A DNA stretch of 55,832 bases from positions 1 through 55,832 of the forward strand of contig JAISGI010000019.1 in NCBI GenBank assembly GCA_031263095.1, read 5' to 3'. Of this stretch, positions 5,478 to 28,501 are shown one piece after another (the stretch's first letter is position 1; each line of letters starts with the position of its first letter). Made by a program: the position numbers and the translations under genes. The stretch comes from Rickettsiales bacterium. Its GTDB lineage: Bacteria > Pseudomonadota > Alphaproteobacteria > Rs-D84 > CACZYB01. The notes under the pieces were generated by a model. The model was not told the origin of the DNA and searched no databases. It worked only from the letters and a program-made list of their open reading frames with translations.

Positions 5478-5507
5478 AAAATACCCCCCCCCGTGTATTT
5501 TTGTCAA
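5478..5507 (-). promoter_or_regulatory. promoter with G9 tract in the -35/-10 spacer
   Basis: TTGACA-N18(contains G9)-TATTTT-GTC-N4-ATG; same architecture at 23410-23439. Confidence 0.6.
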
Positions 5508-5522
5508 TAAAAAATTTAAGGT

Positions 5523-5556
5523 AAGAAAAAGCGCCCTCCTGTTGCTGGGCGGGCGC
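5523..5556 (-). terminator. intrinsic terminator of ssrA
   Basis: GCGCCCGCCC...GGAGGGCGC hairpin followed by TTTTTCTT on the minus strand. Confidence 0.65.
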
Positions 5557-5826
5557 GGCCCCACTTTGGAAGTCCAAGATTCCCAAAGAATCTACGCGCT
5601 TTCCGGCTTAGGCAGCCAGGGCAAGCGCAGGACGATTGTCATTAGCATTCGTTCTTTTTAACCCGTTCGCTCGAAAGCAGGGCGGAATAATACCCTGATG
5701 CACGCCTATCCTTTATTGCACCCGTCGAAGCTGTTCATCCCCGTAAATGGTGGAGATGTCGGGAATCGCACCCGAGTCCGAAATGCCTATTCCAATATGC
5801 ATTTAGCATCATAGCCGTTGCCGGCA
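5530..5826 (-). ncRNA. ssrA: tmRNA, circularly permuted two-piece (alphaproteobacterial) form
   Basis: Acceptor piece ends CATCTCCACCA at 5748; 5-nt spacer; coding piece begins GGGGATG at 5742 (G3-U70 Ala identity); tag ORF 5646-5608 encodes ANDNRPALALAA*; ends approximate. Confidence 0.92.
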
Positions 5827-5832
5827 GGAACT

Positions 5833-5861
5833 ATTATAGTACAAAGTTCGACGGCTGTCAA
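5833..5861 (-). promoter_or_regulatory. consensus sigma70 promoter of ssrA
   Basis: Perfect TTGACA-N17-TATAAT. Confidence 0.85.
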
Positions 5862-5920
5862 CCGGAAATTTCCCCTTGACGCCACCGCCGCAATCCTATA
5901 ATCTGCCCTCAGAGGGAAAA

Positions 5921-15571: not shown

Positions 15572-16954
15572 CTACACCTTGAGCTCGTAGAGCGAGGCGA
15601 AGCAGCCAGCACCGCCGGACTTGCCCGCAGCCTCTTGCCCCGGTGTGTTGTTCACTATTGCGGCATCGCCGTTTTTAAGCTCGTACTCGTCGGACTTTAT
15701 GCCGGTGCCTACGTCTATGCGGCCAGTATCGCTCTTGTCCAGAGTGTACTTGGTCTCGCTGGAAACCGCGAACACCTGGCTGTTCCAGTCGGAATCCGAG
15801 CACCACCCCTCCATCTTGTAGATTCCGGCGGGCACTTTCTTGGATACCTCCTTGGCCTCCGATGTGTCGAGAAGCTTCCACTTGGGTTCCTCGCCGACGC
15901 ACGCCTCGGCCTCTCCATAGGACAGGAACTTGTTCATGGAAAGGCAGGCGTCGCGGATAGAACCTCTGTGCTCGCCTTCGGCTTTGGCCAGCAGACGGTC
16001 CTTCTCCGCTTCGGCCTTCTCGAAGAACGCCTCGTCAAGCCCTTCGCGCTTCAGCTTGGCAGCGTCGCGCTCCGCCTGAAGCCCGGCGATGTGGGCAAGC
16101 CTGTCCGCCTCGGCCTGGTTTTCCGCCTCCTGCTCGAGAGCGTCCCTGTCGTTCTTGGCCTGGGCGATGTCGGACTTCAGCTTGTCGATCTGGACAAGCG
16201 CGTCCGCAGTGTCGGCGGCCTTGTCGGTCTTGGCTTTGGTGATGAGGATTCTGGCTTTCTCCATGAATACCGCGGTGTCGATGTCAAGCTGATCCGCGGC
16301 GTCGCGCGCTTTCTGCTCTTCCTTGACGCTCGACAGCTGGAACTTGGCTATCGAGGCGTTCGTGGCGGAAACGTCGGTCGCCGGGTCGGTGGCAAGCAGG
16401 GCCGCGGCCTCGGTATAGGCCTGGGATGCTTCGCCGCTGAACCCGTCGGCGGCATCGGCCGCTTCCTCTATCTTGTCGGCGGTCGCATCGGCAGTGTCGT
16501 ATGCGGCCTGCAAAATCTCCTTGTCCTTCTCGGTAAGGAATTGCTGGGAAAGCATGGGGCCAAGCCCGTCGACGCTCTTGCGCGCGTTGTCGGCATAGGC
16601 CCTTGTACGCTCGACCGAGGCTTCGATTGCCTCAAGCTCGGTCAAGGTGCTTGTCGTAGCGGCGGCGGCTTCGACACCCGCCGCTCCTGCACGACCCCCG
16701 TCGGCGGAACGTGCGGCGCCACGGCCACCTGCCCGGGCGGTTCCCGCTGCCCTCGCTCCGCGCCCGGTCGAGGCTGCGCGGGCCGAACCGCCCCTGCCCC
16801 TGGTCGTTGCGGCGGCGCGGGCCGAACCGCCCCTGCCCTTCGCAGAGCTTGCTGCGCGCGCGGGCTGTTTCTTTGTGCTCTTTTGCGGAGCCGCGTCGAT
16901 GGCCGAAGCCGCGACAAGCGCACCCGCGAAAAGTATTGCTGATAGTTTATTCAT
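15572..16954 (-). CDS. secreted protein: basic SARAA-repeat N-terminus, Ala/Glu coiled coil, Cys-containing C-domain
   Basis: Signal peptide, KKQPARAASSAKG shared with the upstream gene, heptad-rich middle; AGGAGA RBS. Confidence 0.8.
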   Translation of the reverse strand: MNKLSAILFAGALVAASAIDAAPQKSTKKQPARAASSAKGRGGSARAAATTRGRGGSARAASTGRGARAAGTARAGGRGAARSADGGRAGAAGVEAAAATTSTLTELEAIEASVERTRAYADNARKSVDGLGPMLSQQFLTEKDKEILQAAYDTADATADKIEEAADAADGFSGEASQAYTEAAALLATDPATDVSATNASIAKFQLSSVKEEQKARDAADQLDIDTAVFMEKARILITKAKTDKAADTADALVQIDKLKSDIAQAKNDRDALEQEAENQAEADRLAHIAGLQAERDAAKLKREGLDEAFFEKAEAEKDRLLAKAEGEHRGSIRDACLSMNKFLSYGEAEACVGEEPKWKLLDTSEAKEVSKKVPAGIYKMEGWCSDSDWNSQVFAVSSETKYTLDKSDTGRIDVGTGIKSDEYELKNGDAAIVNNTPGQEAAGKSGGAGCFASLYELKV

Positions 16955-16967
16955 TTCATTCTCTCCT

Positions 16968-18830
16968 TTACATGCGTTTCAGGGTTACCCAGCCGGGCAT
17001 TCCGCCGTTGCCGCTGCCCGAGCCGCCTTTGGCGCCCAGGCCGGAACCATACAGAACTTGGGCCACGGGGCCGGTCGCCTCGCCGGACTTCATCTCTTTA
17101 AGCGAGCCATCCGAGGGAACGCTTGAAACAGCCTCGACTATGCCCTGTGTGATGCCTTCGGTCGCCAAACCGGCGATAGCTCCTCCGGCTGCTCCAATTC
17201 CAGCAGTTATGGCAACGTTGGCGGCAACAATTGCACCGGTACCAGAAATAACACCCCAACCGCCGGCGCTTGCAAGACCTAATACCCCAATACCGGCAGG
17301 AGCGAATAGAACGGTTGCGGCGACGCCCGCGACTGCAACCAAAGGAGTGATTATGTCGGTCCAGCTGAATCCATTTCCGCCGCCACCTCCGCCGCCATAG
17401 GCGCCGAATCCGCCGAAGCCCTCGATCTCGGTTCCGTCGGCAAGCGTAAGCCCGAACGCCGAATATCCGCCGCCCGCGCCGCTTCCGCCTTTGCCGAAGC
17501 ATCCGGCGTTGCTGCCTCCGCCGCCCGCTGCGCCAAGCGTGCGGGTGTATTTATATTTGAGCGGGTTCTTCAGGTCTTTCTTGCCGTCCTCGCCGATTCT
17601 ATAGGTCGGCAGGCTGAACCACACGCGGGAAATGTCCGCGCGTCCGCCCGAGGCGCCGTCGCGCTTGGTCCATGCGCATTTATAGCGCCCGCCTCCGCCT
17701 CCTCCTCCGCCTGATACTTCAAGATAATAGAGTCCGCCAACAATCTCGCCCGTGCTGCCAAGCTCGATTGGCCCGGTCGGCATCGAGCTTTCGACTTTCG
17801 CGATAAGCGCTTCGATTTCCTTGTTGCGCTTGTCGGCAAGCTCGTCCGCCGCGGCGTCCTCCTTGCGATAGTCGAAGTCCTTGACCTGGTTCTCGCGCCC
17901 GATTTCTATGGTTTCCATCTGGGTTTTAAGGTCGCGGTACTTCGCCGACTGTTTCAAGGGGTCTTTCTCCTCGGAATCTTTGGCGTATGTCGGAATGGCT
18001 ACAAGCTGCCTGTCGAGCTTCGCAAGCTGGGTGCTGTAGTCGTCCAGAACCGCGGCAAGCGACTTCGCCCTCGCGCTCGGCGTCGCGGCCATATAGGCAT
18101 CGTATGCCGTGCGGAAGTCGGCGTACCCGTCCGCCTCTCCAGTGGGCGTAAGCTTTGCGGGCGGAGTGTATTTGACCCCGGTTTCATCCTCGAACAGCTC
18201 GTACATCCCGGCTATGCCCTCGATTTTAAGCGTTTCCGCGTCAAGCTCTTTCTGAACCTTGTCGACTTCCGCCTGATTCTTGCCGTCCTTGGCTGCCTGC
18301 ATCTGGGAGCGCAGTTCGCCTAGCCTTCCCCCTGTCCTCTCGCCGGTAAGCTCGTCTTCTTCTCCTGCAAGGTTGGTAAGATGGGTAGAGAGTTTGTCCC
18401 TCTCGGCCGCGGCCTTGTCTGCGTCTTTGGTAAGCGATTCGGCCTCAACGTACATCTCGATGTCCGCACGCGCCTTGGCAAGTGCAGCCTGAAGCTTGGC
18501 GGCTTTGTCTTCCGCCGTGGATGTCGACACCGCCGCGGTCGCTACACCCGGAGCTCCGGCCAAGGGTATGGCCTCCTCGGTTTGAGCAGCACCCCTGCCC
18601 GCCCCGCGCGAGGCGCCCCTTGTAGCGCTGCCGCCGCGCGTTCCTGCCGCCCGGGCCGAGCCAGCGCCCTTGCCCTTGACCGCAGCGCGCGCAGATTTGG
18701 CGCCACCCTTTGCCGAGCTTGCCGCCCGCGCCGGTTGTTTTTTGTTGTTGTTCTTTTTGGGCGGAGGCGCCGAAACGACCGAAGTCGCCGCGACGATAAG
18801 CCCTAAAAGCAATGCAAGTTGTTTTTTCAT
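16968..18830 (-). CDS. secreted protein: basic N-terminus, coiled coil, Gly-rich domain with hydrophobic glycine-zipper insert
   Basis: Signal peptide; KKQPARAASSAKG; YYLEVSGGGGGGGG...GWVTLK Gly-rich domain; ~65-aa hydrophobic segment. Confidence 0.8.
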   Translation of the reverse strand: MKKQLALLLGLIVAATSVVSAPPPKKNNNKKQPARAASSAKGGAKSARAAVKGKGAGSARAAGTRGGSATRGASRGAGRGAAQTEEAIPLAGAPGVATAAVSTSTAEDKAAKLQAALAKARADIEMYVEAESLTKDADKAAAERDKLSTHLTNLAGEEDELTGERTGGRLGELRSQMQAAKDGKNQAEVDKVQKELDAETLKIEGIAGMYELFEDETGVKYTPPAKLTPTGEADGYADFRTAYDAYMAATPSARAKSLAAVLDDYSTQLAKLDRQLVAIPTYAKDSEEKDPLKQSAKYRDLKTQMETIEIGRENQVKDFDYRKEDAAADELADKRNKEIEALIAKVESSMPTGPIELGSTGEIVGGLYYLEVSGGGGGGGGRYKCAWTKRDGASGGRADISRVWFSLPTYRIGEDGKKDLKNPLKYKYTRTLGAAGGGGSNAGCFGKGGSGAGGGYSAFGLTLADGTEIEGFGGFGAYGGGGGGGNGFSWTDIITPLVAVAGVAATVLFAPAGIGVLGLASAGGWGVISGTGAIVAANVAITAGIGAAGGAIAGLATEGITQGIVEAVSSVPSDGSLKEMKSGEATGPVAQVLYGSGLGAKGGSGSGNGGMPGWVTLKRM

Positions 18831-18873
18831 TTTTTCTCCTTCCTTCCATCCGCCGATTCGGAAAACCTCTCAA

Positions 18874-18894
18874 TAAACGGACGAATATTTGAAA
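18874..18894 (-). other. putative invertase recombination site A (inverted relative to B and C)
   Basis: Reverse complement TTTCAAATATTCGTCCGTTTA matches site B TTTCAATTAAACGTCCGTTTA at 18/21 positions. Confidence 0.65.
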
Positions 18895-19014
18895 CGGTTC
18901 CTAGGAATAAAAATGTTGCGGGAAATTCCGCCCGGAATAAGGAAATTTTTTGCCCACAAGTAGTTGAATTTACTTGCTTACCCCCCCCCTATATTGCTTT
19001 TGGCAGTATTTTTC

Positions 19015-19082
19015 CTATTGAATTGTTTTCAGATTGTGATATATTTTCAATTAAACGTCCGTTTAATTTTATGCTATCATTA
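19015..19082 (+). repeat. direct repeat copy 1 (promoter-like sequence plus recombination site B at 19045-19065)
   Basis: Near-identical to 20434-20499; contains TTGAAT-N16-TATATT with extended TG and the AAACGTCCGTTT core. Confidence 0.85.
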
Positions 19083-19120
19083 TAGTTGCAGACCAAGGGA
19101 ACATCTGGTAGGAGAATAGA

Positions 19121-19726
19121 ATGATAGTGGCCTATGAGCGCATATCCAAGAATACCGAGCACCTCGAAAACCAGAGGCACCTCATAATGCGCTATACCGC
19201 CGAGAACAGCATAATTATAGACAAGTGGGTATCCGAGGTCAAATGCGGCGCCGCCCCGCTCGAGGGCAGACGCCTGAACCAGGTCCTGCGGCGCATAAAG
19301 CGGGACGACATAAAGCTTATCGTCGTGGCCGAACTCTCCCGCCTCGGCCGCTCGCTATACCAGGTCATGGGCATAATCGACAAGGTGCTCTCCTCCGGCT
19401 GTGCCCTGTGGATAGCCAAGGAAGACCACAAGCTCGACACCGGCACAATCTCCCAGATGCAGTGCTTTGCATGGAGCCTGTCCGCACAGATAGAGCGCGA
19501 GCTTATCTCCTCGCGCACCAAGGCCGCCCTCGCAAGATTGAAGGCCGAGGGCAAAAAGCTTGGCCGGCCCGTTGGCTCGCGCACGGCGTTCCGGCGCCTC
19601 GACGGCAAGCGCGAGCATATCCTCTCCCTGCTCTCCGGCGGCATGGCGAAATCCACACTCGCCAAACGGCTAAGGATAAGCGTCCCGACCCTCTATCGCT
19701 TTCTCTCTGAATATGAACATGCGTGA
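19121..19726 (+). CDS. serine recombinase, Mpi-like DNA invertase family
   Basis: AYERIS (catalytic Ser), ENQR, ELSRLGRSL, AQIERELISSRTKAALARLKAEGKKLGRP, C-terminal HTH. Confidence 0.9.
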   Translation: MIVAYERISKNTEHLENQRHLIMRYTAENSIIIDKWVSEVKCGAAPLEGRRLNQVLRRIKRDDIKLIVVAELSRLGRSLYQVMGIIDKVLSSGCALWIAKEDHKLDTGTISQMQCFAWSLSAQIERELISSRTKAALARLKAEGKKLGRPVGSRTAFRRLDGKREHILSLLSGGMAKSTLAKRLRISVPTLYRFLSEYEHA

Positions 19727-19760
19727 ATAAGAATCTTGCATTTTTATTTATAATTTTCTA

Positions 19761-19789
19761 TTGTAATTCTTACTCTCAAAAGCTATAAT
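19761..19789 (+). promoter_or_regulatory. sigma70 promoter of the structured RNA / small secreted gene
   Basis: TTGTAA-N17-TATAAT; predicted +1 near G19796, the first base of the RNA closing stem. Confidence 0.7.
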
Positions 19790-19795
19790 ATATTT

Positions 19796-19977
19796 GTACC
19801 TAAATAGGTACGGGGCTAATTTGTAAGGCCCTCTTGTTTGCAGTGCGATGTGCACTGAGATTCACATCCCCAATACTTGGGGAGGCTTCGGTGTATGTTC
19901 AAGGGATTTATCCCTAAAGACTGGAGCGAGTCTTTCAAACAAGAGATTCTTACAAACTCCCCGACTTTTTTAGGTGC
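19796..19977 (+). ncRNA. unassigned ~180-nt structured RNA / 5' leader
   Basis: Long interrupted closing stem (GTACCTAAA/TTTAGGTGC, CGGGG/CCCCG, TTTGTAAG/CTTACAAA, CTCTTGTTTG/CAAACAAGAG) enclosing four perfect hairpins. Confidence 0.6.
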
Positions 19978-20004
19978 CAACTTAAACTTAAAAAAGGAGT
20001 AATC

Positions 20005-20376
20005 ATGAAAAAAGTATTATCAACCTGTTTATTGGCCTTGACGCTTTCGTCAGGCGCAGGCGCGGCCGTGAACTGCCGCAATACAACCAGTACAAAAAAA
20101 TTGGAGGGCCAGCTGAACCAGTTTACCAAAATTTGCGGGGTGATTGTCGATCATGATTATGCTGGCAAATATGTGCCGGATACCGTAATCGGATGCATAT
20201 ACGATGTCCTGAAACCATGCCATGTCAAGGGCAGGAACATAAATATGGTTTACGATTGGATGATTGGAACCGGAGGCACTTCTTGGAGCGGTCCGGTCGA
20301 CAGCACATGCGTGGACAAATTGTATACGACTTCCAAAGTTGCGGATGCCATAGTGAATTGCGGCAAGAAAAAATAA
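20005..20376 (+). CDS. small secreted Cys-rich protein
   Basis: AAGGAG RBS, signal peptide (MKKVLSTCLLALTLSSGAGA), six Cys in the mature part, lower GC than flanks. Confidence 0.8.
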   Translation: MKKVLSTCLLALTLSSGAGAAVNCRNTTSTKKLEGQLNQFTKICGVIVDHDYAGKYVPDTVIGCIYDVLKPCHVKGRNINMVYDWMIGTGGTSWSGPVDSTCVDKLYTTSKVADAIVNCGKKK

Positions 20377-20393
20377 CGCGGCATGGATAAAGG

Positions 20394-20433
20394 AAAACGC
20401 TCTGTAGCCACATTTAGGTGGGCAGAGCGTTTT
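20394..20433 (+). terminator. intrinsic terminator
   Basis: AAAACGCTCTGT...GCAGAGCGTTTT hairpin directly abutting repeat copy 2. Confidence 0.7.
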
Positions 20434-20499
20434 CTATTGAATTGTTTTCATATTGTGATATATTTTCAAGAACGTCCATTTGATTTTATGCTGTCATTA
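20434..20499 (+). repeat. direct repeat copy 2 (promoter-like sequence plus degenerate site C at 20464-20481)
   Basis: Near-identical to 19015-19082; core GAACGTCCATTT. Confidence 0.85.
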
Positions 20500-20539
20500 C
20501 GGGAAGGCGCAGGGACAAGCTTGAAAGGAAATTTTCAAA

Positions 20540-21508
20540 ATGCAGTCTTACTCGATAACCGACGTCCTCGGCTTCTCCCTGATAGTGGCGCTCTGCCTCG
20601 CCATCGACCTGTTCGCGCACAAGAGGGACAAGGAGCCATCCGCGAAATCCGCCGCCGCCTGGACCCTGTTCTGGATAGCGGTGTCGCTCGCGTTCGCTAT
20701 GTATATAAGGCACACCCGCGGCGCGCCTGACGCCTACGCATTCCTTGCCGGATACGTGCTTGAAAAGACCCTCTCAATAGATAATATATTCGTCATCATG
20801 GCCATATTCGCAAGCTTCGATATACCGGCAAAGCTCCAACATAGAGTCTTGTACTACGGAATATTGGGCGCGCTGGTACTAAGGCTTGTGTTCGTCGCAG
20901 CAGGAGGAGCGTTCGTAGAGGCCATGGGCGGCACCGCGCTCGCCGTCTTCGGCCTGTTCATACTCTGGTCGGCGGTAAAGATGATGGAGGCCGCCGGAAT
21001 CTGGTTCCTCGCCTGGTCGGTGTTCAAGAAAGAGCAAAAACCGCAGGAGCAGGACTTCAAGAACCACTGGTCGCAAAGGTTTTTCAAACGCCTGTTCCCC
21101 ATAACGCCGAAACTTGAAGGACATAGGTTCTTCATAGGCAAGGCCGCGACACCACTGTTTTTGTGCCTGCTTACGATAGAGTTCGCGGACATTATGTTCG
21201 CCTTCGACAGCATTCCGGCCGTCATAGCCGTAACCGAAAAGCCGTTCCTGATATACACAAGCAACGTCTTCGCGATATTGGGCATGAGGTCGCTGTACTT
21301 CTGCCTTGCCGCGGCCAAACGCTCGCTTGTCCATTTGGAAAAGGCGGTCGTGGCGATACTGTTTTTCATAGGCTTGAAAATGCTTGCCGAAGTGTTCTTC
21401 AAGGCTCACGTTTCGCCGGGCGCCTCGCTTGCCGTGATATTTTCCATGGTCGCCGCGGGTGTCGCCGCCTCGCTCATCTGGCCGGGAAAGAAAAGCGAAA
21501 ATGCCTAG
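20540..21508 (+). CDS. TerC/Alx family metal (Mn) homeostasis membrane protein
   Basis: GYVLEKTLSIDNIFV, QHRVLYYGILGALVLR, DIMFAFDSIPAV, YTSNVFAILGMRSLYF. Confidence 0.92.
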   Translation: MQSYSITDVLGFSLIVALCLAIDLFAHKRDKEPSAKSAAAWTLFWIAVSLAFAMYIRHTRGAPDAYAFLAGYVLEKTLSIDNIFVIMAIFASFDIPAKLQHRVLYYGILGALVLRLVFVAAGGAFVEAMGGTALAVFGLFILWSAVKMMEAAGIWFLAWSVFKKEQKPQEQDFKNHWSQRFFKRLFPITPKLEGHRFFIGKAATPLFLCLLTIEFADIMFAFDSIPAVIAVTEKPFLIYTSNVFAILGMRSLYFCLAAAKRSLVHLEKAVVAILFFIGLKMLAEVFFKAHVSPGASLAVIFSMVAAGVAASLIWPGKKSENA

Positions 21509-22443
21509 CGCCCGCCACGCTCGGAAATTACGCGCGCCTGACGCTTGAGGGCAAGCACCGCCTCCGCGACCTTGACGGAATCGCTCTCGTCCTCCGGACG
21601 CGCGGCAAGCGCCTCTATAATCGCGTCCGGATTGTGGGTCAAGAGGAGTATCTGCTCCTCAAGCAGAAGCTTGTTCACGACGCTTTTCTCGTTCCCTTTT
21701 GAATAGCCTGGCATGCCTTGCAGCCTTTTGCCAATCTCGACCACGCTGCCGTCCGCGCGCCTGTTGTAAAGCTGCCCTCCGACTGCCCGCGGCTTGGAGA
21801 AAAGGTCGTCCTTATAGATGACCAAATCGCCGGCCGCAAGCGAAAGCGGGGAACGCCGCCCGATGGTCTTTCCGTCCTCAAGAACGATTGCCGCCGGCGC
21901 CACGGACTTGACATAACTCTCGCGGTCTGCTTCGTGCATGCTTACATTCGCGATAGGCAGGACGAAAGCCTCTATAATTCCGCCTACTATCGCTACTAAG
22001 ACGATGGTCTCTAGGTTGTGGTTGAAAAACTTCACTATCCCTTCGCCCGCCTCGCCAAGTTTGGCAAGCACGGGATTGAGCCTCTTTTTCTTGGGCAGGA
22101 ATTCGCCCAGCCTCTCGGCCATAGGGCGCGACTGCTCGGCAAGCGCGAACTGCGAAAGCTTTATGTCCGCGCCGTCCCTGTACCCCTGGAACTTGTTCCA
22201 ATGGTCGGCATGCGCGTCAAGCTTTTTCGATATGACGGAAAGTCGCCCTATGGCCTCCTTCACCGCCTCCCTGTTCTTGCCCCCCCCCGCAAGTAGTTGC
22301 GGCAGACGCGAGGCTATCTGCACCGCCTCGGACTTTTCGGAATCGGAGAGGACGGGCTTCCCGTCCGCATCACACACGCCGAGCACGTCGCCGAAGTCGT
22401 CTATCGTCCGCTCTATCGAGACTTTTTTAATTATCTTTTTCAT
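21505..22443 (-). CDS. hypothetical membrane-anchored protein (internal G9 tract)
   Basis: 312-aa ORF with one TM segment (TIVLVAIVGGIIEAFVLPIA); start overlaps the stop of the upstream gene. Confidence 0.7.
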   Translation of the reverse strand: MKKIIKKVSIERTIDDFGDVLGVCDADGKPVLSDSEKSEAVQIASRLPQLLAGGGKNREAVKEAIGRLSVISKKLDAHADHWNKFQGYRDGADIKLSQFALAEQSRPMAERLGEFLPKKKRLNPVLAKLGEAGEGIVKFFNHNLETIVLVAIVGGIIEAFVLPIANVSMHEADRESYVKSVAPAAIVLEDGKTIGRRSPLSLAAGDLVIYKDDLFSKPRAVGGQLYNRRADGSVVEIGKRLQGMPGYSKGNEKSVVNKLLLEEQILLLTHNPDAIIEALAARPEDESDSVKVAEAVLALKRQARVISERGGR

Positions 22444-23409: not shown

Positions 23410-23439
23410 AAAATACCCCCCCCCGTCGGTTTTTGTCAA
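23410..23439 (-). promoter_or_regulatory. promoter with G9 tract in the -35/-10 spacer
   Basis: TTGACA-N18(contains G9)-TATTTT-GTC-N4-ATG, same as 5478-5507. Confidence 0.6.
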
Positions 23440-28385: not shown

Positions 28386-28501
28386 CTTCTTCCCTCCTTT
28401 TATATCGAAAATTCCCTATTTTATAGTACCCACCTTACCCCCCCCCGTGTCAAAGTCAAGTAAAAATTGACTTTGCGCACGGCATGCGCTATACTCGCGC
28501 C

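Follow-up and report, generated by a model that had tools for sequence, protein, structure and literature searches.

A probable invertible-promoter switch upstream of two surface-protein genes in a Rickettsiales bacterium

The window analysed here is a stretch of 55,832 nucleotides from a Rickettsiales bacterium (Alphaproteobacteria; assembly GCA_031263095.1, contig JAISGI010000019.1, positions 1 to 55,832 of the forward strand). At its centre of interest lies the gene for a small serine recombinase, P0001, together with two putative recombination sites, A and B, that form an inverted repeat around a promoter-like segment. On the left, beyond site A, begins a pair of minus-strand genes for proteins with signal-peptide-like N-termini, P0003 and P0004. 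On the right, beyond the recombinase gene, follow a small secreted-looking protein gene (P0002), a degenerate third site (C) and a terC-family gene (Table 1). A first-pass annotation had proposed that these parts make up a multi-state invertible-promoter switch with three sites. We describe the sites, the recombinase and the corresponding loci of related genomes, and then weigh this proposal against a simpler one with two sites and against two further explanations.

Table 1. Features of the locus and of its surroundings (positions in the window)
Feature	Coordinates	Strand	Details
P0004, second gene of the putatively controlled pair	15572..16954	-	460 aa; signal-peptide-like N-terminus
P0003, first gene of the putatively controlled pair	16968..18830	-	620 aa; signal-peptide-like N-terminus, glycine-rich C-terminal half
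Site A, distal recombination site (putative)	18874..18894; 14-mer 18874-18887	-	14-mer TAAAC-GGAC-GAATA; 21-nt inverted repeat with B
Proposed invertible segment	18888..19051	.	about 165 bp between the 14-mers; crossover centres about 178 bp apart
C9 tract inside the segment	18981..18989	+	between TTGAAT (18964) and TATATT (18990), 20-nt spacer
P1, promoter-like	19018..19045	+	TTGAAT-N16-TATATT, TG before the -10; 9/12 consensus matches; reads toward the recombinase gene
Site B, proximal recombination site (putative)	19051..19066; 21-nt arm 19045-19065	+	perfect 16-nt palindrome TTAAACG-TC-CGTTTAA
P0001, small serine recombinase, divergent Mpi-clade member	19121..19726	+	201 aa; Pfam Resolvase 1.2e-23, HTH_7 8.6e-6
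Consensus promoter match facing the P0003/P0004 pair, inside the recombinase gene	19214..19242	-	TTGACC-17-TATAAT, 11/12; promoter by consensus match only
Structured leader RNA upstream of P0002	19796..19985; core 19876-19965	+	190 nt; minimum free energy -83.3 kcal/mol, z -7.6 against shuffled sequences
P0002, secreted-looking	20005..20376	+	123 aa; six cysteines past the signal peptide; gene G+C below surroundings
Direct-repeat copy of the promoter and site-B region	20421..20499	+	holds P2 (20437-20464) and degenerate site C
Site C, degenerate	14-mer 20469-20482	+	AGAAC-GTCC-ATTTG; centre GTCC and orientation as in B
terC-family membrane protein gene, downstream of P2	20540..21508	+	Pfam TerC 1.1e-45
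Nine-C/G tracts in the window	5484-5492, 18981-18989, 22280-22288, 23416-23424, 28438-28446		one inside the proposed invertible segment

Two inverted sites around a promoter-like segment

Sites A and B form a 21-nt inverted repeat whose arms match at 18 of 21 positions (86%) and are separated by 150 nt. The distance from A to the ATG at 18830, with which the minus-strand pair (18830-16968 and 16954-15572) begins, is 44 bp; a re-reading of the letters confirmed what the first-pass annotation had said about both the match and the position of A just upstream of this operon. Read as a site of two 5-nt half-sites around a 4-nt centre (5-4-5), B is TAAAC-GTCC-GTTTA. In A the outer half-site is perfect and the inner one agrees at three of five positions, while the centre is the reverse complement of that of B, so that A keeps the exact centre and eight of the ten half-site positions. 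The 4-bp centre is asymmetric and gives each site a direction: A is inverted with respect to B, whereas B and C are direct.

The length of the repeat alone is unexceptional for this AT-rich gap, and another 21-nt inverted pair with 86% identity (I3) was found. When the 165 core-bearing candidates in the 854,641 bases of the genome were ranked by their match to the palindrome, B came first, A third and C joint fourth. The site in second place (contig 19, two mismatches to the palindrome) was considered as a target in trans and rejected as a chance occurrence, being located in a GC-rich, apparently coding stretch and having no partner. A, B, C and this contig 19 sequence were the only site-like sequences in the genome, the completeness of which is rated 88.6%. 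In the genome scan for further inverted pairs that the first-pass annotation had suggested, 2 of the 4206 overlapping windows contained a perfect 5-4-5 palindrome together with an inverted partner that has the same centre; one of these two windows holds A and B.

Consensus scoring of promoters gave a mixed picture. It agreed with the earlier description of TTGAAT-N16-TATATT elements on the plus strand directly before B (P1) and before C (P2), both of which also have TG in front of the -10, and found no acceptable operon-facing promoter within the invertible segment. The broader claim that no good promoter faces the operon did not survive, because the 11/12 match at 19242-19214, the best promoter consensus score in the region, faces it from within the recombinase gene. 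The locus has the make-up of an inverton, an inverted-repeat pair that flanks a short segment, promoter-like by consensus match, and adjoins genes that such a promoter could drive.

The recombinase and its homologous modules in related genomes

P0001 comprises a Resolvase domain (residues 2-146) followed by an HTH_7 domain (residues 158-196) and is the only Resolvase-domain match in the genome. Its only strong match among NCBIfam families is NF009949, the master DNA invertase Mpi family (189.6 bits, E 5.1e-56, residues 1-198 aligned to positions 1-196 of the 203 in the model), and the next family scored 28 bits. The curated cut-off of NF009949 is 272 bits. Among ten homologues scored in the same way, eight passed it, namely two from genus g4 (275.2 and 276.4), one from another alphaproteobacterial metagenome-assembled genome (MAG; 316.3), four from Bacteroidales (279-313) and one from Treponema (305.4), while two remained below (256.5 and 265.6). 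The best matches in the PDB were the DNA-invertase chains 4m6f_A (E 5.7e-9, 39 bits) and 3uj3_X, covering residues 1-193; the match labels say only 'DNA-invertase', and we take both chains to be Gin. The gamma-delta and Tn3 resolvases matched weakly (E 1e-6 to 1e-5).

The reading frame of P0001 is intact and keeps an E-L-S-R-L-G-R-S block as well as Arg7 and Ser9, which correspond to the catalytic Arg and Ser when the protein is aligned with invertases of solved structure. When 23 homologues were aligned, a signature E-[LI]-S-R-[LM]-[GS]-R, defined from this alignment and not from the literature, was present in all 21 Mpi-like rows including P0001, whereas the two enterobacterial outgroup rows (L095, L102) read L-D-R-L-G-R instead of E-L-S-R-L-G-R. 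The earlier description of the protein as Mpi-like is supported. As judged from its family match over the full length and from the shared E-L-S-R-L-G-R motif, 'Mpi-type' is right for P0001 as a statement of kinship, but by the curated threshold the predicted protein is not a member of the family.

Homologues of the recombinase were detected in 26 of 41 related genomes (that of the window counted), often several per genome, and were present in 13 of the 14 genomes of genus g4 and in 9 of the 11 genomes of genus g7. The closest of them, with 41-45% identity, belong to genus g4 of the same family. Their loci show the same layout as the one in the window, in which a distal site is followed by about 100 bp with a promoter, a proximal site that is a perfect palindrome, a conserved leader of about 90 nt and the recombinase gene. 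A promoter of the type TTGACT-N17-TAnnAT was found inside each of the relatives' modules. Strictly defined, as a perfect 5-4-5 palindrome whose inverted partner has the same centre, the module occurred in 6 of 41 recombinase-upstream windows, while among 348 control windows taken from these loci only 1 contained it. Loci L187 and L192 also conform to it if one or two mismatches are allowed, and one candidate (L005) was not counted, as its upstream repeat shares the half-site but not the centre. The centres vary from locus to locus (GTCC in the window; CTCC, CACC/GGTG and GTTG elsewhere), yet are equal in both arms of each pair. Such matching fits strand exchange at a 2-bp overlap, which requires it, whereas mere binding does not. 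Distal sites with one weak half-site are the rule in these modules.

The evidence from relatives is strong, and most telling within it is that the segment between the sites was found inverted in two of them. BLAST searches with positions 5530-5900 of locus L185 as query showed segment and flanks to match opposite strands in G007:C5 and in G011. In the former, residues 24-75 matched in minus orientation (E 7.5e-6), whereas the flanks gave plus-strand matches (E 4.6e-52 and 1.7e-4); in the latter, the strands were plus for the segment (E 1.2e-15) and minus for the leader (E 2.3e-18). The promoter faces the divergent genes in both. The G007:C5 locus contains two tandem proximal sites and a glycosyltransferase operon. 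In G011, at the end of contig 17 and the start of contig 11 (L216 and L229), only 21 codons of the recombinase gene remain, and the locus looks like a naturally locked switch. The overlap of its two contigs is 55 nt long, and the break coincides exactly with the far edge of the 14-bp site, the point at which mixed orientations would cause the assembly graph to branch. This break is suggestive only, because the other junction is unbroken.

Three orphan modules were located away from any recombinase gene, two in genome G007 (C3, L228, and C12, L232) and one in G010 (C2, L234). Each abuts the start of a divergent gene, and in each the promoter points away from the adjacent gene. They suggest that in g4, as in Bacteroides, the Mpi-family enzymes additionally have several targets in trans. 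The divergent genes of the relatives encode mostly signal-peptide proteins or glycosyltransferases. About 10 of about 41 strong recombinase matches lay within 1.5 kb of a contig end; this placement could reflect heterogeneity due to inversion or simply paralogous repeats and was not used as evidence.

Interpretation of the locus and comparison with known systems

Taken together, the arrangement of sites, promoter and recombinase gene and its recurrence among relatives lead us to read the locus as a probable local invertible-promoter switch that controls the two surface-protein genes, and we put the probability of this reading at roughly 0.65. Dimers of P0001 would bind B and A, which lie in inverted orientation about 178 bp apart, and strand exchange at the matching asymmetric centre (TC/GA) would flip the segment of about 165 bp that carries P1. 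As assembled, P1 would read through B into the recombinase gene and leave the 18830-15572 pair without a promoter borne by the segment. After inversion, a distance of about 55-60 nt would separate P1 from the downstream ATG at 18830, and P1 would drive the secreted-protein pair, with its -10 element about 13 nt from the centre of A and a leader of about 57 nt before the ATG. The ON state would thereby take the promoter away from the invertase gene, a latch that follows from the geometry of the promoter. Transcription from P1 is expected to start at a position covered by B, so that recombinase bound there may in addition repress its own promoter. We infer that inversion still occurs in this genome, that P1 is a working promoter and that its loss lowers the supply of recombinase. 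The recombinase gene may have another promoter, and the 11/12 match within it may feed the operon regardless of the orientation of the segment.

Several observations weigh against an active switch of this kind. The inner half-site of A is weak (GAATA versus GTTTA). The promoter match with the better consensus points at the operon from within the recombinase gene, so the operon may not depend on P1. The recombinase itself falls short of the NF009949 cut-off, carries the unusual residues Glu6 and Lys10 as well as a 2-aa insertion, and has no closer relative than 45% identity among genome contigs and 43% among metagenome contigs. Among eight recombinase-adjacent modules of relatives, the promoter points toward the recombinase gene in six and away from it in two; the locus of the window was assembled in the former state as well, while a freely flipping latch might be expected to accumulate in the other one. 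Finally, no inverted state was seen in the run data, which consist of assembled contigs only (run X1, about 6x). Thirteen contigs with depths of about 5.5-9 were placed on the locus, and none of them had a loose end at one of the three sites or a joint at which the strand changes. The orientation check that the first-pass annotation had recommended thus returned no inverted joint from the contigs of this one run, at a depth of about 6x that gives it no power: such contigs drop rare variants, and the missing joints are not evidence that inversion is absent.

The same run contained a short variant contig (about 18947-19041) with five substitutions inside the proposed segment, at 18977, 19000, 19001, 19006 and 19008. 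Its depth was 4.8, compared with 5.7 for the reference version and 5.5-6.7 for the flanking contigs. It could be due to two haplotypes or to an unassembled second copy. Nothing was drawn from the contig break points there because a simple A x B crossover would not produce them.

Some of the points just listed would also suit a locus that descends from an inverton but in which inversion has ceased in this lineage, with P1 now serving the recombinase gene and its duplicate serving terC. The degenerate inner half-site of A, the divergence of the recombinase (189.6 bits compared with 275-316 for relatives) and the single orientation in the low-depth contigs all agree with such a fossil, and the truncated recombinase gene of G011 shows that loci of this type can become fixed. 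However, P0001 has an unbroken frame in which Arg7, Ser9 and the E-helix motifs are present, the palindrome of B is perfect, A retains its exact centre and most of its half-site positions, and weak distal half-sites are just as usual among the relatives; we therefore consider a fossil or locked switch unlikely. A further possibility is that the sites only bind the protein, as operators or res-like subsites, and that P0001 is not an invertase but an autorepressor or a resolvase, which would act from A and B on the divergent promoters, or would resolve or excise the cassette between B and C. Tn3-family resolvases are known to bind subsites between divergent genes and to autoregulate, and the gamma-delta and Tn3 enzymes are among the weak structural matches of P0001. 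The overlap of B with the expected start of P1 and the direct orientation of B and C on either side of the recombinase gene would fit as well. Yet the best family match is an invertase family, and no transposase lies nearby, where the neighbours are superoxide dismutase (SOD), PTPS, TerC and GyrA genes or genes that match no family. The res plan of Tn3, with three subsites within about 120 bp and a linked transposase, is not what was found here, as a promoter separates two sites that are spaced 178 bp, and the third is 1.4 kb away. Binding alone also leaves unexplained why asymmetric centres are identical between arms across loci with four different centres, and why the segment is inverted exactly between the sites in two relatives. 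We regard this explanation as very improbable.

The three-site proposal of the first-pass annotation depends on site C. As had been claimed, C is oriented like B; it also has the same centre GTCC. The similarity of the two sites is part of a direct repeat of about 80 bp that includes the promoter. Its copies, 19002-19082 and 20421-20499, show 88-90% identity, and a gap of 2 nt falls in the site. They are identical at 35 of 37 positions across the promoter and at 15 of 16 downstream, and their differences cluster in the site itself, where the 2-nt gap and three substitutions affect 5 of 16 positions compared with 3 of 53 in the flanks (Fisher p = 0.014). Both half-sites of C agree at three of five positions only, and the G adjacent to the centre, kept in all other sites compared, is lost. 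If C nevertheless worked, A x C recombination would invert about 1.6 kb with the recombinase gene and P0002 and hand the promoter copy of terC to the operon, while B x C recombination would delete a 1.4-kb circle. In favour of such a multi-state switch, C keeps GTCC in the orientation of B and ranks joint fourth among the 165 candidates of the genome, it is accompanied by the nearly identical copy of P1, and a relative with extra sites exists (G007:C5 with its two tandem proximal sites). Its resemblance to B is no evidence of use, however, because it is shared by descent within the duplicated block, and the concentration of changes in the site, the poor half-sites with their missing G and, at low power, the lack of any A, B or C joint in the contigs of run X1 speak against it. 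A working third site is in our view improbable, and this part of the earlier proposal is not upheld. By sequence comparison, C is most likely a by-product, now decayed, of a duplication through which terC acquired a copy of P1. Most simply, the copied site is either in the course of decay or selected against, because B x C recombination would delete the recombinase gene.

As a local inverton with two sites, the locus can be compared with several known systems. Mpi (ssr2, finA), the master serine invertase of Bacteroides fragilis, is like P0001 a serine recombinase of about 200 aa with an E-L-S-R-L-G-R motif. The available text of the reports on Mpi describes short promoter segments, with about 180-190 bp between the repeats, that are flipped and control surface structures (PMC4747536, PMC10403206), and 13 distant regions on which the enzyme acts (PMC4747536). 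In contrast to the many distant targets in B. fragilis, one locus with sites was found in this genome, the flipped promoter is proposed to face the recombinase gene and the target genes in turn, and the host is an alphaproteobacterial gut symbiont of about 0.9 Mb and not a member of the Bacteroidales. We take ARACGTWCGT to be the consensus core of the Bacteroidales repeats; B (AAACGTCCGT) matches it at 9 of 10 positions, with a C at the W position. Among four Bacteroidales genomes with a P0001 homologue, only a Parabacteroides MAG (G044) showed pairs of this pattern on opposite strands, three in number and spaced 187-188 bp, and in two of the four the totals did not exceed those of a reversed-pattern control. 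The homologues of three of these genomes, including that of G044, were scored against NF009949, and all passed the cut-off.

The DNA invertases Hin, Gin and Cin (Salmonella hin-hix, phage Mu gin-gix) share with the locus the chemistry and the domain plan of the enzyme, sites made of two inverted half-sites with a 2-bp crossover whose asymmetry sets the orientation, and, as one result of inversion, a switch of the gene that a promoter drives. They differ by their distant similarity (39 bits) and by D-R-L-G-R where P0001 has S-R-L-G-R. In the Hin system the recombinase gene is located inside the invertible segment, whereas here it lies outside. In the fim switch of E. coli, the supply of the recombinase FimE is tied to the orientation of the element, which biases switching. 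Our locus would resemble it in coupling recombinase supply to orientation, as the promoter geometry suggests, although fim relies on tyrosine recombinases and exerts its control on the mRNA.

Inverted repeats, an internal promoter, an adjacent invertase gene and surface-related targets are also what the locus shares with invertons from surveys made with PhaseFinder, PhaVa and DeepInverton. The survey texts available report 4686 invertons in 54,875 genomes across phyla (PMC11868660) and invertons in Proteobacteria (PMC11602134); these texts name neither this lineage nor Mpi-family invertons of Alphaproteobacteria, and their supplementary tables may list such cases. Our literature searches returned no paper describing such a system in Alphaproteobacteria or in this lineage. 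The suggestion that it is undescribed there holds to this extent only, as NF009949 already scores proteins from alphaproteobacterial MAGs above its cut-off and the presence of the family is therefore implicit in annotation. The locus is probably an ordinary type of switch in an unusual host. Invertible promoters of the Mpi type are characteristic of gut Bacteroidales. The occurrence of this enzyme family, and of local and orphan invertons with it, in gut alphaproteobacterial genomes of 0.8-1.1 Mb would mean that this toolkit has spread across phyla in gut habitats, and that the means to vary the cell surface stochastically are retained even in strongly reduced genomes. The version described here, compact with one enzyme and one locus, would offer a simple system for studying site recognition and directionality of the Mpi type.

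Neighbouring genes, homopolymer tracts and a leader RNA

The assembly comprises 44 contigs with 55% G+C. The locus is carried by one public run, a termite gut metagenome (share 0.96), and two further runs of the same study are nearly without it; with the contigs of all three runs placed, neither joints nor loose ends were seen at A, B or C. Plus-strand SOD and PTPS-family genes form the left end of the neighbourhood. They are followed by P0004 and P0003 on the minus strand, an AT-rich gap, and P0001, P0002 and the TerC-family gene on the plus strand; beyond the latter lie two minus-strand frames that match no family and then gyrA. None of the neighbouring reading frames tested matched a transposase family. 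A comparison of gene order with the same-genus genome G002 was uninformative about island boundaries, gyrA being at a contig start there, and searches of the two same-genus genomes with the recombinase, TerC, P0002 and P0003 as queries returned no match.

P0002, P0003 and P0004 matched no Pfam or NCBIfam family, and their Atlas rows were all below the bar for naming. For P0002, no homologue was found in the 40 relatives searched. Residues 350-620 (approximately) of P0003 resembled domains of the Gly_rich_2 or ALK_LTK_GRD type in a low-confidence Atlas model; this likeness is a lead only, because no Atlas row reached the naming bar. Such domains are frequent in phage tail-fibre-like proteins. 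In P0004 the N-terminus is followed by a basic stretch rich in Ala, Arg and Gly and by coiled-coil-like repeats, and residues 331-409 are 40% identical (E 9e-9) to a member of a family of small secreted proteins whose genes carry G9 tracts, which is described below; the C-terminal domain of P0004 is that of this family. A third gene that shares with P0003 and P0004 both its signal peptide and its basic N-terminus rich in Ala, Arg and Ser was observed at positions 1-400 of contig 1 of the genome (G000; L238), where it extends past the contig start. Upstream of it lies TTGAATTTAC-N9-C9, akin to positions 18964-18989 of the window, on the strand that points away from the gene, as in the window.

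The C9 tract within the invertible segment belongs to a large set. Across 855 kb, homopolymer runs of C or G numbered 20 with six bases, 1 with seven, 3 with eight, 107 with nine, 9 with ten and 1 with twelve, which amounts to a spike at exactly nine. Exact C9 tracts were also counted in G002 of the same genus (121) and in some g4 genomes (22-31). Among the 120 tracts of at least eight bases, 17 are located in the spacer of a promoter-like TTGACA...TAnnnT site and 43 lie a few codons into genes of the small secreted-protein family. With nine G, 39 of these 43 have the wrong frame, which in some would be restored by one G fewer and in others by one more. The tracts look like a very large set of contingency loci controlled by slippage, or like programmed transcriptional slippage. 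Comparable cases are the poly-G promoter tracts of the tpr genes of Treponema pallidum and the poly-C tracts in the fim promoters of Bordetella. Our literature searches returned no paper on this lineage.

With the tracts included, the locus can be imagined as a two-layer, self-limiting switch in a genome of about 0.9 Mb built around phase variation, in which the latch of the inverton would be combined with slippage at the C9 tract and with a rarer 1.6-kb inversion through site C. We consider this elaborate version unlikely. If it applied, several independent stochastic systems, including the G9 gene family and the leader RNA upstream of P0002, would serve one repertoire of surface proteins.

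The predicted leader RNA is preceded by a promoter-like site (19761-19789) and has a second copy in the genome (contig 28, 454-551). It had no match in Rfam 15 at E<=1, as was the case for the whole region from 18000 to 22000 of the window. In an alignment of 13 copies, compensatory changes were present in 16 of the 30 predicted pairs. A covariance model of the 90-nt core matched 29 of the 41 related genomes, with up to 30 copies in a single genome (G003), and in 14 of 21 sampled instances a signal-peptide gene, judged by eye, lies just downstream. These comparisons make the RNA a candidate for a new cis-regulatory leader of secreted or surface proteins that is present in multiple copies across this bacterial order. 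Together, the nine-C/G tracts and this leader, which Rfam does not list, suggest an unusually elaborate control of surface proteins in the lineage and may be more novel than the switch itself.

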